Source: Mobula birostris (lineage: Eukaryota). From it: DNA of 64,000 nucleotides. Below the pieces are notes generated by a model, which was given only the letters and a program-made list of their open reading frames with translations, was not told where the DNA came from and searched no databases. Each line of letters opens with the position of its first letter. Position 1 is the stretch's first letter. The translations under genes were made by a program, and so were the position numbers. Below are positions 7,351 through 61,050 of the stretch, one piece after another. The stretch covers positions 51,314,477 through 51,378,476 of the forward strand of contig NC_092394.1 of assembly GCF_030028105.1 (NCBI RefSeq), given 5' to 3'.

Positions 7351-7535
7351 ACACATAAAATGTTGGAGGAATTCAGCAGGCCAGGCAGCATCGAGGAAAA
7401 GAGTAAACAGTTGACGTTTCGGCCTGAAACATCGACTGTACTCTTTTCCATAGATGCTGCCTGACCTGCTGAGTTCCTCTAGCGTTTTGTGTGTGTTGCT
7501 TGGATTTCCAGCATCCGCAGATTTTATCTTGCTTG
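7351..7535. repeat. Palindromic (head-to-head) Penelope terminal fragment
   Basis: Two ~70-bp arms, acacataaaatgttggagg...gacgtttc and gaaacatcgac...ttttgtgtgt, are reverse complements around ggcct. Confidence 0.75.
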
Positions 7536-12040: not shown

Positions 12041-12077
12041 CAGTCCTGAAGAAGGGCCTCAGCCCGAAAAGTCGACC
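12041..12077 (+). ncRNA. Minimal hammerhead-ribozyme-like motif in a Penelope end fragment (12015-12180)
   Basis: cagtc CTGAAGA agggcctcagccc GAAA a GTC gaccg: both core boxes, helix II and helix I (cagtc/gaccg, one mismatch). Confidence 0.6.
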
Positions 12078-12746
12078 GCTCACTCTTTTTCACAGATGCT
12101 GCCTGACCTGCTGAGTACTTCCAGCATTTTGTGTGTGCTGTTTTGGGTTCCCAGCATCTGTAGACTTTCTCATGTTTGGGTATTTCCAACACTCCATTGC
12201 AGGTTTCCAGCAAATGTTTGTATCTTACAGTTCCAGCAACTCTATTTCTTCTTTCTCTTAACCATCGTAAACACTCACTACTACCACCAGCAGCACACAG
12301 CAGCCACCGCCTGTACCATCCAAACAATGTACTGCAATTCCCCACCGGATAAACCCAAACCTGCGACCCTAACTAGGAAGAAGGTCAAGGTCAACAGGTA
12401 TGTGTAAAGACCACTACTGCAGATGCCCTTTCAATCCATGTACCATTCTACCCGGAAATAATCCTTCTGTGTTGATAGCTACAAGTCCAAGAAGCCCCCA
12501 TCTCACTCCAGGGGGAGCACCTTCGTCAGAAGGAAACAGATGCTCAAATGGACTATGAGGAATGAGTGTCAGCCTTGCCTTATGTAGATTAATTCATTAA
12601 ATAGAATTTTACAGAATTACTCCACTCACTATTCATTTAATTGACCCGGTTCCTAAAAAGTACTCCAAAGTTAGGAACTATTCAATCGTTCTACACCCTA
12701 CCAATTAATCCAACTGCGACATATATACTTAGCCCACTCCCTGGCC

Positions 12747-21689: not shown

Positions 21690-22905
21690 TGCGTGAGAAC
21701 TTTGTGCCAATTCTTCCGTTCCACGTTTATATTGCAAACTCCCTCTCACCACGGTTCTCTCAGCTATACCTTTTCCCACACTATCTCCTGTAAAAATACT
21801 ATTCTCTTTTCTCAGTTTCTTTGCCTCTACTGCATTTGTTCCCAGGACATGGCTTTCTGTTCCAGGAGATGTCCTCCTGTTTCAGATAATGGGTTTTTCC
21901 TCCCTCTACTATTGATGCTGCCCTTGTCCGCATCTTCATTTCCCCTACGTCTGTGCTCACCACATCTTCCCACCACCTTAATAGTAACAGGGTCCCTCTT
22001 GTCCTTATCTACCACCCTGTCAGCCTCCGCAGCTTCCACCATCTCCAAAGAGAACCTACCACTAAACATAACTTTACCTCCAACCCCCCCCCCACCGCCT
22101 TCTGCAGGGATCACTCCCTCCCCACTAATCTCCCTCCAGGCATTTATCCCTGCAACCTGCCCATTCACGTCCTCCCTCGCCCCCATTCAAGGCCCCAAAC
22201 AGTCCTTCCAGGTGAGGCAACACTTCACCTGCAAATCTTCAGGGTGGGGTGGTCTATTGTGTCTGACGCTCCTGACGTGGTGTCTTCTACACTGGTGAGA
22301 CCCGTAGTAAATTGGGAGACCGCTTTGTCGAGCACACCCACACCATCCGTCACAAGCAGGACTTCCCGGTGGCCAAACATTTTAATTCCCATTCCCATTC
22401 CCATTTCCCATTCCTGGTCCCGTTCTGATGTGGTGATCCCCGGCTTCCCCTTGTGCCAAGATGAGGCCACCCTCAGGGTGGAAGAGCAACACCTTACAAT
22501 CCATCTGGGTAGCCTCCAACCTGATGGCACGAATATTGATTTCTCCTTCCGGTAAACAAATCATCCCTCCCCCCACACACTTTCCTCTATTCCCTCACTC
22601 TGACCTTTGAATTCCTCAAAATTGCCTATTACTTCCCCCTGGGTCCCCTCCTCCTTCCCTTTCTCCCATGATCCATTCTCCTCTGCTATCAGATCCCTTC
22701 TCCTCCAGCCCTTTACCCTTCCACCCAACAGGCCTCACCTATCACCTTCTAGCTAGCATCCTTTCCCTCTCCCTCCCCACCTTTTTATTCTGAGATCTTC
22801 CCCCTTCCTTCTCAGTCCTGAAGAAGGGCTTGGACTGATATGTTTATTCATCTCCATAGGTACTGCTTGACCTGCTGAGTTCCTCCAGCATTTTGTGACT
22901 GTTGC
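21690..22905 (+). mobile_element. Penelope-like element, 3' part (GIY-YIG region and terminal repeat)
   Basis: RVPLVLIYHP, IQGPKQSFQVRQHFTC, FYTGET...LGDRFVEH and LGSLQPDGTNIDF, then a pyrimidine-rich tail and the shared terminal motif. Confidence 0.85.
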
Positions 22906-25703: not shown

Positions 25704-26240
25704 ACAACACACACAGAATGCTGGGGGCAGGCAGATCTATGGAAAAGAGTAAACAGACAACGTTTCAGGCCGAGGCCCTTTATCAGGACTGGAATAAAAG
25801 TTGAGGAGTCAGAGTTAGAAGGTGGAGAGAAGGGAGGAAGAAGTACAAGTGAAACTGGGGGGGAGGTGAAGTAAAGAGCTGAAAGAGATACAGGGCTGGA
25901 GAAGGGGGAATCTGATGGGAGAGGACAGAAGATTGTGGAAGAAAGGGAAGGGGGAGGAGCACCAGAGGGAGCTGATGGGCAGGTGAAGAGATGAGGTGAG
26001 AGGGGGAAACAGGAATGGGGGAATGGTGAAGGGAGGGGGGGGGCAACTACCTGAAGTTGGAGAAATTGGTTGGAAGCTATCCAGATGGAATATAAGTCTT
26101 ACCTGAGTGTGGCCTCATCGCCGCAGTCAAGGAGGCCATAGACTGACATGTCAGAACGGGAGTGGGAAGTAGAATTGAAATGGATGGCCACCACGAGATC
26201 CTGCTTTTTTGTGGCGGACGGACTGAAGGTGTTCAGCAAA
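25704..26240 (-). mobile_element. Penelope 3' fragment with degenerate hammerhead motif at 25754-25791
   Basis: Reverse complement of the 22320-22900 segment. Flanked by gcaaaacaca at 25694-25703 and 26236-26245. Confidence 0.8.
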
Positions 26241-37239: not shown

Positions 37240-38745
37240 ACACGCAGCACAGAAATGATCCCTCAGAGTGCACCTCACCTGATACCCATCTTCACGGATC
37301 CCATTTACCTGCATTGGGCCTGTATCTCTCGGATGCTTTTCTACCCAAGTACTCATCCAAGCATCTTTTAACTTAGCATCTGCCTTCCAACCTGCTCTGG
37401 CAATTCATTCCAAATATTCATCATCCTCTGTGTGAAACAGCTCAGACCTCCTTTACATTTCTCGCCTTTCATCTTAAACTTCTGGGCTCCCCTGTCTTGA
37501 GAAAATGACTCCAACTATCTATCCTTGTTATGTCATTCACTATTTTATTAGCTGGTTCCTAAGGTTGTCATAACCGGGGGTGGTAGTTGGGATAAGCTCC
37601 CACTACCTATAAAGTGCTCCAAATGGCGTGCGTCTCTAACAGCCTCTGACAACCAAGTCCAACTCTTGGCCTTCACGTGAGGCTTAGCTACTAGGCCCAG
37701 CGGAACCATTTCTACTGACAAGAGAAAGGGCAAAGGCAGACCACTGGCACCTCAAAACCAGTTGCTTCGGGCAGGTGGGGTTCATCAGCCTTGGATGGCA
37801 GCCCGCCTAGGAGAAGGAAAACTCTGATTTTAAACCTCCACTGCCTTGCGACCTGGGAAAAGCTTCGTGAGTAAACCCCAGGTAGAAATCTGGAGCCAGG
37901 GTCCCTAAGGCAGTTTGATGTTGTTTGCAACTTCACCCTGGCAGCCTCTGTGATGACACTGGTGCCAGGCTGTCTCGGCACTTGCCCTTCTCATGGACTA
38001 CATCAGTGACGTGGAGAGGGGGAACCCGCTGCGTGGGCAACAGCCGGTTCTTCAAATCTTCCCGCCCAGACTTGTGCCCTGGAGAGGACACAGTCCACCA
38101 GAGGCGCAAACCCATGATCCCCTGGGATTGACGGCTGCCTACTACTATTTTATTAGCCCCTGTCAGGTCAGCCCTTGGCCTTCCAAGTTCCAGTGAAAAT
38201 AAACTCACACTGTCAGATTTCTCTTTATTACCACAGAACTCCATTTTAAACAACATTCTGGTGAATCTCTTCTGCATTCTTTTTATTGCTACCACTTCTT
38301 CCTGAAGTGCAGCAACCAGAATAATACATATTACACTAAGTGCAGACTAACCAATATTTTGTACAGCTGCACCATGATGACACAACTCTCGTGCTCATTT
38401 CGTTGGACTATGAATGAAAGTAGATGACATGTTTTTTTTCCACTATTTGCTCCATGTATGTTGCCACTCTTAGACATAGGGTCCCAGACCTTTCTCTGCA
38501 TATTAAAACCCCTTTGGTTTCCCTGCCATTTATTTTAAACGTCCAAACAGAATTTGACTTCCCAATGTGTAATTCCTCATTCCCTGTGGATGATTTTTTT
38601 TTTTGCCATTACTCTGGCCAACTTTCCAGCTGATCTATGTCCTACTGATTCTTAAACAACTTTCTTCAATGTCTATGATCCCACCAATTTTTGTGTCATC
38701 TGCAAACTTACTATTCATACCCCTTACGTTCTTACACAAGTCATT
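37240..38745 (-). mobile_element. Old CR1 fragment interrupted by the 37553-38143 insertion
   Basis: Minus-strand KFADDTK (tgtgtcatctgcaaactt) and RMQKRFTRML. Confidence 0.75.
37553..38143 (+). mobile_element. Short non-autonomous retroposon, probably RTE-derived
   Basis: Perfect 14-bp TSD actattttattagc at 37539-37552 and 38144-38157, and a (tac)n tail. The motif ctaggagaaggaaaactctgattttaaacc is recalled as RTE 5' UTR-like. Confidence 0.8.
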
Positions 38746-54239: not shown

Positions 54240-54592
54240 AAGAGTTAGAATTTTCCATGGTGGGAGAGTCTAGGACAAGAGGACACAGCTTCGGGATGGG
54301 GGGGGCGGTCCATTAAAAACAGATGTGGAGAAATTTCTTCAGTCAGAGGATGGTGAATTTGTGGAATTTGTTGCCACAGGCAGCTGTGGAGGCCACATCG
54401 TTAGGTGTATTTAAGACAGAGATTGATGGGTTCTTGTTTGGACATGGCATCAAAGGTAATGGGGAGAAGGCCGGGAAAGGAGGTTGAGGACGAGGGAAAA
54501 AAAAGGATCAGCTATGATTGAATGGTGGAGCAGACTCGATGGGCCAGATGGCCTAAATCTGCTCGTATGTCTTATGGTCTTATGGTCTTAAT
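54240..54592 (+). mobile_element. CR1 3' end
   Basis: Contains the RNFFSQRMVNLWN equivalent and a (tatggtct)n tail. Confidence 0.85.
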
Positions 54593-55440
54593 GGGCTGAT
54601 AGGCCTTGTTCTATGTCATTTAACTGATTCTGTAGTATAAATACAAGCAGCTTGTTTTTATATTACAGCTACTGTCCATCTAGAGTCCAAAATGGTGGCA
54701 TGTTTATTCTCAATGCCTAAGGTTCTGACCATTTTGGAGATAGTGATCATAATTCTATCTCCTTTACAATAGCATTGGAGAGAGATAGGAACAGACAAGT
54801 TAGAAAAGCGTTTAATTGGAGTAAGGGCAATTATGAGGCTATCAGGCAGGAAATTGGAAGCTTAAATTGGGAACAGATGTTCTCAGGGAAAAGTACGGAA
54901 GAAATGTGGCAAATGTTCAGGGGATATTTGTGTGGAGTTCTGCATAGGTACGTTCCAATGAGACGGGGAAGTTATGGTAGGGTACAGGAACCGTGGTGTA
55001 CAAAGGCTGTAATAAATCTAGTCAAGAAGAAAAGAAAAGCTTACAAAAGGTTCAGAGAGCTAGGTAATGTTAGAGATCTAGAAGATTATAAGGCTAACAG
55101 GAAGGAGCTCAAAAAGGAAATTAGGAGAGCCAGAAGGGGCCATGAGAAGACCTTGGTGGGCAGGATTAAGGAAAACCCCAAGGCATTCTACAAGTATGTG
55201 GAGAGCAAGAGGATAAGAGGTGAAAGAATAGAACCTATCAAGTGTGACAGTGGGAAAGTGTGTATGGAACCGGAGGAAATAGCAGAGGTACTTAATGAAT
55301 ACTTTACTTCAGTATTCACTCTGGAAAAAGATCTTGGTGATTGTAGTGATGACTTGCAGTGGACTGAAAAGCTTGTGCATGTAGATATTAAGAAAGAGGA
55401 TGTGCTGGAGCTTTTGGAAAGCATCAATTTGGATAAGTCA

Positions 55441-56087
55441 AACAACAGGAATTCTGCAGATGCTGGAAATTCAAGCAACACACATCAAAGTTGCTGGTGA
55501 ACGCAGCAGGCCAGGCAGCATCTCTAGGAAGAGGTACAGTGGACGTTTCAGGCCGAGACCCTTCGTCAGGACTAACTGAAGGAAGAGCTAGTAAGAGATT
55601 TGAAAGTGGGAGGGGGAGGGGGAGATCCAAAATGATAAGAGAAGACAGGAGGGGGAGGGATGGAGCCAAGAGCTGGACAGGTGATTGGCAAAAGGGATAT
55701 GAGAGGATCATGGGACAGGAGGTCCGGGAAGAAAGACAGGGGGGGGGAACCCAGAGGATGGGCAAGGGGTATAGTCAGAGGGACAGAGGGAGAAAAAGTA
55801 GAGAGAGAAAAAGAATGTATGTATAAAAATAAATAACGGATGGGGTACGAGGGGGAGGTGGGGCATTAGCGGAAGTTAGAGAAGTCGATGTTCATGCCAT
55901 CAGGTTGGAGGCTACCCAGATGGAATATAAGGTGTTGTTCCTCCAACCTGAGTGTGGCTTCATCTTTACAGTAGAGGAGGCCGTGGATAGACATGTCAGA
56001 ATGGGAATAGGGTGTGGAATTAAAATGTGTGGCCACTGGGAGATCCTGCTTTCTCTGGTGGACAAATCGTAGGTGTTCAGCAAAGTG
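55441..56087 (-). mobile_element. Penelope 3' fragment inserted in CR1
   Basis: Reverse complement of the GIY-YIG C-terminus, pyrimidine tract and terminal motif. It interrupts CR1 after ggataagtca. Confidence 0.85.
55537..55574 (-). ncRNA. Minimal hammerhead-ribozyme-like motif (best-preserved core)
   Basis: Reverse complement reads agtc CTGACGA AGG gtctcgg CCT GAAAC GTC cactg. Confidence 0.65.
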
Positions 56088-56877
56088 ACGGGAGACGTTC
56101 CAGAGGATTGGAAGGTTGCAGATGTTGTTCCTTTATTCAAGAAAGGGAGTAGAGATAACCCAGGAAATTATAGACCAGTGAGTCTTACTTCAGTGGTTGG
56201 TAAGTTGGTGGAGAAGATCCTGAGAGGCAGGATTTATGAACATTTGGAGAGGTATAGTATGATTAGGAATAGTCAGCATGGCTTTCTCAAGGGTAGGTCA
56301 TGCCTTACAAGCCTGATTGCATTTTTTGAGGATGTGACTCAACACATTGATGAAGGAAGAGCAGTAAATGTAGTGCATATGGATTTTAGCAAGGCATTTG
56401 ATAAGGTACCCCATGCAAGGCTTATTGAGAAAGTAAGGAGGCATGGGATCCAAGGGGACATTGCTTTGTAGATCCAGAACTAGCTTGCCCACAGAAGGCA
56501 AAGAGTGGTTGTAGACGGGTCATTTTCTGCATGGAGGTTGGTGACCAGTGGTGTGCCTCAGGGATCTGTTCTGGGACCCTTATTCTTCGTGATTTTTATA
56601 AATGACCTGGATGAGGAAGTGGAGGGATGAGTTAGTAAGTTTTCTGATGACACAAAGGTTGGGGGTGTTGTGGATAGTGTGGAGGGCTGTCAGAGGTTAC
56701 AATGGGACAGTGATAGGATGCAAAACTGAGCTGAGAGGTGACAGATGGAGTTCAACCCAGATAAGTGTGAAGTGGTTCATTTTGGTAGGTCAAATATGAT
56801 GGCAAAATATAATATTAATGGTAAGATTCTTGGTGGTGTGGAGAATCAGAGGGATCTTGGGGTCTGGGTCCATAGGA

Positions 56878-58068
56878 CAGGGATCCACAACATTTTTTGC
56901 ACTGCGGACCGGCCGACTGGGACTGCGGGGGGTGGGGGTAGGGTTGCCAACAGACAAGAGTAGCAGTCAAATACGTTGTTTACCCTGAGAAAGACTACAA
57001 TGACCATGAAGCCTTGTGCGGGCACCAGTGCGCATGCGTGAATGTGCTGATTTTTTTCTTCCACAAGTCACTTTTGGCGATTCTGTTCGGGGGGGGGGGG
57101 GGGATGTTAATCACGACCAGAATATAGGTGATAAGTGGCTAATACACTCAATTTCATTTCTAAAAGGGTTTATCTAATGAATTTAATATTAAACACACAG
57201 CGCATATTTTCCTCGCATGAATATACTGATAAGTCAATTATCAGGTGAGGACAGGGGAACTTGAAGTAAGTATTGAACGAACTTCCAGTAGAAGTGGCAG
57301 AAGCAGGTTCGATATTATTATTTAAAGAAAAAATGGATAGGTATATGGACAGGAAAGGAATGGAGGGTTGTGGGCTGAGTGCAGGTCAGTGGGACTGGGT
57401 GAGAGTAGCGTTTGGCACAGACTAGAAGGGTAGAGATGGCCTGTTTCTGTGCTGTAATTGTTATATGGTTATATAAGTCACTTATAAGTCAATAGCATCA
57501 TAAAATTTTAAGTATCTTTTGAATATTAAACACACAGCACATATTTTCCCTGTATGAACATATAAAATCATTGCAACACACCAATATCGCTGAATCAGTG
57601 GGAGCCCTGGGCTTGTTTCCCTGCAACAAGACGGTCCCATCGAGAGGTGATGGGAGACAGCGATAGTCAAAGGGGGTTCCTTATGTCCAGTCTATTCCGC
57701 AGTTTATTTGTCGTTGCATTCATTGCAGAGATATGTTGGAAATGGAAGCAACGTTTTCAGTGCTTCCGTGGCTATCTCAGGATATTTAGCCTTGACTTTG
57801 ATCCAAAATGCCAGCCAAGATGTTCTGTCAAACATAACTTTTCAGCCCGTCGTCATTTGCAAGCTTGAGGAGTTGATCTCTTTCCCGTGCTGACATGGAT
57901 GACGCGCGGATAATGACTTCGCGTGCGTTCAAGTTCAGCAGTGCATGACAAGGAATGAGGAAAGGTGCAGCTGACTCATATCGCCAAATCATATCGTTTC
58001 CTTGTGGCCTGGTAGCACATGCTTTGCGTCCCGGTACCGGTCCATGGCCCGGTGGTTGGGGACCGCTG
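56878..58068 (-). mobile_element. Internally deleted hAT (Charlie/Buster) DNA transposon
   Basis: Perfect 8-bp TSD ccatagga at 56870-56877 and 58069-58076. TIRs cagggatccacaac and gttggggaccgctg. Minus-strand transposase C-terminus FWIKVKAKYPEIA...LLPFPT...KLRNRLDI...LSPITSRWDRLVAGKQAQGSH*. Confidence 0.93.
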
Positions 58069-59264
58069 CCATAGGACATTCAAAGCAGCTGCGCAGATTG
58101 ACTCTGTGGTTAAGAAGGCATACGGTGTATTGACCTTCATTAATCATGAAATTGAATTTAGGAGCCGAGAGGTAATGCTGCAGCTATATAGCCCTGGTCA
58201 GACCCCACTTGTAGTACTGTGCTCAGTTCTTGTCACCTCACTACAGGAAGAATGTAGAAACCATAGAAAGGGTGCAGAGAAGATTTACAAGGATGTTGCC
58301 TGGATTGGGGTGCATGCCTTATGAAAACAGGTTGAGTGAACTCAGCCTTTTCTCCTTGGAGCGACGGAGGATGAGAGGTGACCTGATAGCGGTGTATAAG
58401 ATGATGAGAGGCATTGATAGTGTGGGGAGTCAGACACTTTTTCTCAGGGCTGAAATGGCTGCCACAAGAGGACACAGTTTTAAGGTGCTGGGGAGTAGGT
58501 ACAGAGGAGATGTCAGGGGTAAGTTTTTTACACAGAGAGTCATGAGTGCGTGGAATGGGCCATCGGCAACGGTGGTGGAGGCGGATACAATAGGGTCTTT
58601 TAAGAGACTTTTGGATAGGTACATGGAGCTTAGAAAAATAGAGGGCTATGGGTAAGCCTAGTCATTTCTAAGGTAGGGACATGTTCAGCACAACTTTGTG
58701 GGCCGAAGGGCCTGTATTGTGCTGTAGGCCTTCTATGTTTCTATCTTGAATTCTTGCCACACCAGATGTGTGTTGGAAAGCACTTAAGGGATAAGAATGG
58801 GGCCTTTAGGATGAGATTTTGAAACTACTTATTGAAATCAACATTGGAAAGAAAATTCAAAGATATAAGTGAGGCAGTGTGGCATTTAAAATAGAACTAT
58901 GCTCAGGACATGTGGAGACAGAACCTATGTAATTAACATCAAAATTTGTACAGTCACAGCTTGCCTGATCCGAAGAAGAAAAGCACATTCAAGGAAGGTA
59001 CACATAGTTGGGTTGGGGGAGGGAGCAAGGGACTATTACAAAGTTCTTCAACAATGTATATTTAGTTCACCATCAGATCACTTGTGTTTTCTCTTCAAAG
59101 AATTTGAAAGTCCTCCTAAAAATCAGGAAGTCATTGGGAGAACAGGTTAAAACACAAAGAGAAGAATGTCTGTAACTTTCCTCCTCATCTTTTTAGACCA
59201 TCCCTTGATGTGGACGATGATTTGCATTCACTCCAGTTCTATTTGTTCTGAGGTGGCTGATGAA

Positions 59265-60539: not shown

Positions 60540-61050
60540 CCATAAGACCATAATGCCCTGAGATAGAGGAGCAGGATTAGGCCATTTGGCCCATCGAGTC
60601 TGCTTCCCATTTCATCATGGCTGATCCATTTCTCTCTCAGCCCCAATCTCCTGCTTCTCCCCATATTCCTTCATGCCCTGACTAATCAAGAACCTATTAA
60701 TCTCTGCCTTAAATATACCCAATACTTGGCCTCCAAAGCCACCTGCGGCAACAAATTCCACATATTCACTACTCTCTGCTAAAGAAATTCCTCCTCATCT
60801 CCATTCTAAATGCACATCCCTCTATTCTGAGGCTGTGTCTTCTAGTCTTAGACTCCCCCATCATCCTCTCCACATCCACTCCATTAAGGCCTTTCAACAT
60901 TCGGTGGGTTTTAATGAGATCCCCCTCATTCTTCAGAATTCCAATGAGTACAGGCCCAGAGCCATCGAACGTTCCTCTTATCCCAGAATCATTTTGGTGA
61001 ACTCCTTTCAATCCTTTCCAGTGTCAGCACATCTTTTCTGAGATAAGAAC
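60540..61050 (-). mobile_element. CR1 3' fragment
   Basis: Minus-strand GDLIKTHRMLKGL...MRRNFFS, with the tail cataagaccataa. Confidence 0.85.

Follow-up and report, generated by a model that had tools for sequence, protein, structure and literature searches.

Does a hAT transposon of a ray that resembles the Charlie3 and MER1 elements of primates tell of an exchange of DNA between such hosts? The question was raised by a window of 64,000 nucleotides (the whole stretch of DNA analysed here) from contig NC_092394.1 of Mobula birostris, in which an earlier note, made from the letters alone, had recognized a hAT element closely resembling primate Charlie3/MER1 and had put it forward as a candidate for horizontal transfer. 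The features of the locus are collected in Table 1.

Table 1. Features of the hAT element and of its host CR1 copy (positions in the window)
Feature	Position	Strand	Remark
Non-autonomous, internally deleted Buster/Charlie-type hAT element	56878..58068	minus	1,191 bp
Target-site duplication, left copy	56870..56877	n/a	8 bp, CCATAGGA, central TA
Target-site duplication, right copy	58069..58076	n/a	CCATAGGA
5' terminal inverted repeat	58055..58068	minus
3' terminal inverted repeat	56878..56891	minus	11/14 against the 5' one
Transposase C-terminal remnant	57598..57902	minus	residues 522-629 of P0003, three frames
5' subterminal/untranslated arm	57903..58054	minus	~150 bp, joined directly to the C-terminal remnant
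44-nt direct repeat, first copy	57182..57225	n/a	86% to the second copy
44-nt direct repeat, second copy	57519..57562	n/a
232-bp insert in the 3' non-coding arm	57241..57472	plus	antisense to the transposase
Host CR1 LINE, ORF2 part upstream of the insertion	56090..56877	plus	start approximate; RVT_1 match
Host CR1 LINE, ORF2 end and 3' tail downstream of the insertion	58077..58745	plus	end approximate

A deleted copy nested in a CR1 element

The perfect target-site duplication announced for this element is there: the eight bases are identical at both flanks, the chance of an exact 8-mer at a fixed place being 1.5e-5, and the quoted minus-strand non-coding end was found as written, as was the quoted C-terminal transposase peptide with its stop (57666-57598, minus strand). 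Inverted ends exist as well, short and less than perfect. The pair does not figure among the 25 longest of the 75 inverted pairs of the window, and no second copy of the element lies within these 64 kb. That the insertion occurred inside a CR1 is confirmed in three ways: an RVT_1 domain is recognized by Pfam in the flank (56073-56468, E 1.8e-15), the two flanks join into one open frame once the element and one duplication are taken out, and contigs with an uninterrupted CR1 continue, in all three contig runs, at 56879 with letters resembling those that follow 58079, as expected of an empty site. Pfam, applied to 80 of the 94 long frames of the window, found RVT_1 in four, ALKBH8_N in two and one match below the cut-off, with no host gene usable as a baseline; one of the 14 other long frames was covered by a separate Pfam scan.

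Other repeats lie elsewhere in the window. One, at 55439-56090, adjoins the host CR1 and has further copies at 7416-7535, 12042-12178, 22354-22555 and 26068-26240; it has no Pfam match and is presumably Penelope-like. Two CR1-type 3' ends, inverted and about 76% alike, lie in the flanking region (54250-54590 and 60543-60864). At 38248-38343 a tblastn alignment to the tail of P0024 and its cluster mates, weak at 37% over 35 aa (E 3.6e-4), is possibly another small hAT end, or chance.

How old is the insertion? The earlier note had it as relatively young, which holds in the sense that nesting makes it younger than the host CR1 copy, and has to be qualified by its three frame breaks and by its distance from other copies, which differ from it at 63-71 of 886 places in at least 15% of contig depth, so that about 8% is an upper bound. 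An attempt at dating the element against its host CR1 found, among the sites listed, at least 16 of 476, 14 of 232 and 10 of 178 to differ. CpG decay was considered as the main source of the differences of this copy, and discarded: it fits only 9 of the 40 sites listed, transitions making up 32 of the 40.

What is left of the transposase amounts to some 108 C-terminal codons, interrupted by a frameshift near 57836, by a deletion with a frameshift near 57727 and by an in-frame stop at 57669-57667. The transposase C-terminus recognized at the outset is therefore present; the internal deletion and the 232-bp insert had been overlooked. As the 5' arm aligns, in translation, with that of a full-length Mobula element (residues 97-162 of P0002), it follows that the ~520 absent codons, out of ~629, were deleted. 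The junction of this deletion, at ~57903-57910, is common to the window element and to a protein of Mobula hypostoma (P0163, XP_062902114.1), with 60 of 78 positions identical across it, and so is a one-codon gap. When the frame crossing the junction was searched against 1.84 billion representatives, this protein was the one strong match among four. Since it has the same junction, we take the deletion as a trait of a subfamily, on the evidence of this one further, independent copy with the same breakpoint. The element of the window itself is non-autonomous and dead.

Two forms of the subfamily

Within the 3' arm, the insert is made of some 30 unassigned bases followed, from about 57270, by a 5'-truncated CR1 3' tail, and the frame at 57270-57425 is similar to the closing part of that of the host CR1 (58215-58655). 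The region 56700-57585 was compared with three contig runs from three organisms (32,959, 37,008 and 29,107 contigs, all 30 bins covered), no run containing more than 0.56 of the sampled words; a raw-read run (X21) gave no read matching this region. Joints that skip 57238/57240-57472 were found in 6, 4 and 11 contigs (depth 1,056, 288 and 648), and mixed loose contig ends lie behind 57474. At position 57246, inside the insert, the summed contig depth reaches 369,137, 207,194 and 28,307 in the three runs, a depth that is not a copy number; variant-bearing contigs over the insert extend to 42-55 letters from their ends, and its right junction is bridged by one contig (depth 382). Forms with and without the insert coexist in three other organisms. 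The chimera that bears it seems to be the commoner one, as judged by summed contig depth, which does not count copies. That three organisms carry the family suggests that its amplification is not recent.

Relatives of the transposase and the primate link

Three protein searches, in which 29 of 33, 66 of 8,000 and 69 of 283 candidates passed the thresholds set, brought in as named hosts rays (Mobula, Hypanus), many teleosts, frogs, a newt, squamates, a turtle, sperm whales (Kogia, Physeter), spiders and bees; no named primate appeared among the matches, nor any shark or skate among the named ones, protein databases giving evidence of presence only. With X placed at its breaks, the remnant is identical at 85 of 102 positions to both Mobula proteins, at 83 of 102 to those of Hypanus and Centroberyx and to P0001, at 77 of 101 to the decayed P0163, and at 64-69 of 102 to those of Kogia, Physeter and Mauremys (64-73% for five short ORFs of the whale/turtle type). 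In percentages, it shares 81-83% with the transposases of rays and of Centroberyx, and 63-73% with the sperm-whale and turtle proteins and others like them, which points to a myliobatiform ray as the probable host.

Pfam found no match in the transposase fragments of the window, and sequence searches of the PDB gave nothing meaningful. For the modelled structure of a full-length relative, P0003 (pLDDT 66.5), all 11 matches listed with E below 1e-6 are Hermes chains (best 4.4e-9, TM 0.34-0.40). Pfam sees zf-BED on P0003 only below the cut-off, and Dimer_Tnp_hAT passes only on the distant relative P0108. Residues D214, D279 and E582, which we take to be catalytic, are invariant, and it is on this relative, P0003, not on the remnant, that a Hermes-like transposase with a BED finger and a DDE core is recognized. 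A TA at the centre of the target-site duplication and terminal repeats starting with CAG are marks of Buster and Charlie elements; both are present here, together with an ORF of ~600-680 aa in the relatives, and the assignment to this group is one made by traits.

Scans of viral and prokaryote genomes confirmed none of 4 and none of 14 candidate stretches, and no virus-borne copy was found in the former. In metagenomes, 2 of 32 were confirmed: L001:350-2410 and L002:1-898, from AT-rich contigs in a single metagenome assembly, are decayed members of the same lineage and bear the terminal motif of the family. The last 40 nt of the element end agree with theirs at 30 of 40 positions and the C-terminal 72 nt at 51-53 of 71, with dN of 0.22-0.23 and dS of 1.1-1.2 between the window and these copies.

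Could the ray element be the sister of Charlie3/MER1, after a direct or near-direct passage between primates and the ray lineage? The idea came from the non-coding end and from the last ~70 coding bases, the latter presumably alike at about nine in ten positions to human MER1A/Charlie3. If that figure is right, ray and primate elements would be closer in DNA than the ray element is to L001 and L002 over the same stretch. Charlie3 would fit the whale type of protein, with its one-residue insertion. The stand-in for Charlie3 was accordingly a set of whale proteins and of ORFs with the same insertion; this choice was made because of that presumed fit and of the dolphin matches given by the article of Hellen and Brookfield (PMC3525145). 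The article reports Charlie3 matches in dolphin, cow, megabat and guinea pig, a patchy distribution in mammals that would suit this idea, as would the recent activity of Charlie3 in the tarsier (PMC5059674). The last 23 residues of the ray protein are also identical at 19-21 positions to mammal-type proteins, but teleosts score 18-20 and the spider and bee 18, the range being 16-21 in all 28 in-group proteins. With such scores in all 28 proteins and with the terminal motif common to L001 and L002, the C-terminal and terminal stretches on which the first reading relied are constrained parts of the whole family.

Longer comparisons speak against the idea. At 19 columns that separate four ray-clade proteins from six of the mammal/turtle type, the window has the ray state 16 times, neither state three times and the mammal state never. 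In a tree of 25 proteins a clade of rays and mammal type is rejected (p-AU 1.9e-29), so that, with whale-type proteins as proxy, the ray transposase stands outside the clade of the mammalian element. The whale proteins fall together with those of turtle, agama and Xenopus (99/97), within a wider clade (100/99) that is without rays, and the Physeter protein is identical to that of a turtle element at 165 of 182 positions (elements P0136, P0167 and P0006) but to that of Mobula at 258 of 346. The latter likeness is still, as had been claimed, too high for neutral vertical descent. What remains of the initial proposal would then be a Charlie3-like hAT belonging to a family of broad transfer; a special primate link of the ray element is not supported by these comparisons, and we hold a direct or near-direct ray-primate transfer to be very improbable.

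Transfer across the family

The careful tree was built from 25 proteins (22 in-group and 3 outgroup) hand-picked from the relatives retrieved, and both groups submitted to the AU test, teleosts on the one hand, rays with the mammal type on the other, were chosen after quick trees had been viewed; a quick tree of 54 rows served as a guide only. The element tree is incongruent with that of the hosts: teleosts fall in at least three places, their monophyly being rejected (p-AU 5e-57), and spider and bee elements nest among those of squamates and newt. Horizontal transfer in the wider sense, across the family, is well supported by such comparisons.

One might still propose that the ray element came down from the jawed-vertebrate ancestor, without transfer, under strong constraint on the transposase and with patchy loss. 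Rays do group together (100/97), a tetrapod-only clade exists (100/99), substitution rates in elasmobranchs are slow, and the dS of 1.1-1.2 that separates the window from L001 and L002 at a dN of 0.22-0.23 means that protein identity overstates recency. This reading has to face the scattered teleosts and the misplaced arthropods just described, and also the identity of 558 of 626 positions (89%) between Mobula and the teleost Centroberyx. Rays and teleosts separated ~450 My ago, which at 3.1e-9 per site per year makes a neutral divergence of ~2.8 per site, incompatible with such identity if the elements are neutral within genomes. DNA transposons are indeed found to be neutral there, with purifying selection only in transfer, by Zhang et al. 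(PMC7070016). Vertical descent is thus given very little credit.

Centroberyx would be the nearest named non-ray relative of the ray clade, a placement that is moderately supported: the node has 83/88 in the careful tree and 97 SH-aLRT in the quick one, itself only a guide, and in a tree of 108 columns the clade of the window has a support of 91 with Centroberyx outside. Mobula and Hypanus share 544 of 626 positions, Mobula and Sebastes 505 of 621. A real ray subfamily in a mobile family, with the ray-teleost link an artefact of a contaminated or mislabelled Centroberyx contig and the source of the ray element elsewhere, is unlikely without being negligible. Centroberyx contributes a single protein record, from a contig of 116,544 bp, no second named teleost joins its clade with rays among 66 matches, and the node is that of 83/88; yet this protein differs by 11-14% from both ray proteins and has an uninterrupted frame of 629 aa, a further lineage (P0001) is 83-87% identical to Mobula and Centroberyx, and even Sebastes comes as close to Mobula as just stated.

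Several other pairs of hosts deserve mention in their own right. A snake element nests among those of poison frogs (P0016 cluster; Ranitomeya and Erythrolamprus, 575 of 596), colubrid, catfish and bee share one 90% cluster (P0061), with Pituophis and Lasioglossum, snake and bee, identical at 556 of 621 positions (90%), and the lizard and newt elements P0068/P0082 (Podarcis and Pleurodeles) agree at 510 of 530 (96%); all three are probable transfers. P0194 carries both tilapia and ferret labels, a database oddity able to fake a transfer between fish and mammal.

A proposed history and its place among known systems

We can thus understand the locus, with good confidence, as a decayed copy of a high-copy non-autonomous Buster/Charlie hAT subfamily of the ray genome, its history running in five steps. 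An autonomous element with a transposase of ~625 aa would have passed horizontally into or out of the ray lineage; outside rays, its nearest named relative is that of a beryciform teleost. An internal deletion then brought the 5' arm up against the final ~108 codons, an event like the one that led from Charlie3 to MER1A/B, at an independent breakpoint. One deleted copy would have taken up a CR1 3' tail, and the chimera amplified, the two forms being observed and their order presumed. A copy was next inserted into the CR1 by cut-and-paste, with its 8-bp duplication, full-length elements like those of Mobula and Hypanus being the probable suppliers of the transposase in trans; and this copy finally decayed. 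As part of this reading, ray and mammalian elements would be cousins, not donor and recipient, within one lineage that has passed many times between fishes, amphibians, reptiles, mammals and arthropods.

Outside the window, gene models of two Mobula species (P0002, XP_072113696.1, and P0030, XP_062905633.1) attach to an N-terminal stretch of RNF4, broken off within the RING, the 5' arm of the element and an uninterrupted transposase of ~628 aa; one may read them as a true fusion of host gene and transposase, or else as an artefact of annotation where an insertion is shared. A bolder account, which we put forward tentatively and somewhat short of an even chance, would rank the Charlie3 lineage with the most widely spread DNA transposons of animals (rays, several teleost orders, frogs, newts, squamates, turtles, whales, primates, spiders and bees, by many separate transfers), with an undescribed exchange between a myliobatiform ray and a beryciform teleost, followed by amplification of a MER1-like ray subfamily with a captured CR1 tail and possibly by a transposase-RNF4 fusion in Mobula.

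A single copy of this sort is nothing unusual. Its use is as a pointer: it brings rays into the host range of a hAT lineage that has travelled widely, and the ray-teleost exchange is a lead worth keeping. The likeness of whale and turtle elements (165/182) suggests that the source of mammalian Charlie3 is to be sought among turtle- and lizard-type elements, not in fish. With the full-length relatives of Centroberyx, poison frogs and snakes, whose frames are uninterrupted, dS dating and an ordinary transposition assay become possible. Guan et al. 2022 is reportedly a dedicated Buster survey, and may already cover the lineage of the ray element, as may the Charlie3-like frog entries of Repbase. 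Among the titles and abstract openings surveyed, subscription papers being outside this scope, no Charlie3-like element in rays is described.

Transfer of hAT elements is familiar: hAT-6_XT passed among turtles, fishes and a frog, as summarized in PMC11008031, and 975 vertebrate transfers are catalogued in PMC7070016, the species table of which has no match for 'raja', 'Chondricht', 'Centroberyx' or 'Beryc', and one each for Rhincodon and Callorhinchus. The phenomenon is the same and the host range similar, identity of lineage with hAT-6_XT not being implied. The Buster family (TcBuster, SPIN, AnBT and others) is defined, in PMC12637253, by 8-bp duplications, terminal repeats of 14-16 bp and one ORF, 597-677 aa long, that encodes BED and DDE domains; its transfer across animal classes is described there as common, with no mention of Chondrichthyes in the main text. 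The likeness of the window copy to these elements is judged by traits and, unlike them, it is deleted and dead. Closer at hand, the ray gene models named 'SCAN domain-containing protein 3-like' (Mobula hypostoma XP_062902114.1, which has the junction and the gap of the window element, and Hypanus sabinus XP_059799794.1) are 81-83% identical to it in the full-length forms; they come from automatic annotation and have not been described as transposon families, and the window copy has extra breaks. The nearest parallel is human Charlie3, which gave rise to the deletion products MER1A and MER1B (PMC5753468 and PMC1914374). Here too, an 8-bp-duplicating hAT has a non-autonomous derivative that keeps both ends and the transposase C-terminus (see also PMC3525145), within the same wider transposase lineage (~75% to the whale proteins standing in for Charlie3); the ray element differs in belonging to a separate clade, as judged with the whale proxy, and in having a breakpoint of its own and a distinct 3' arm, in which a 44-nt repeat and a captured CR1 tail are found.
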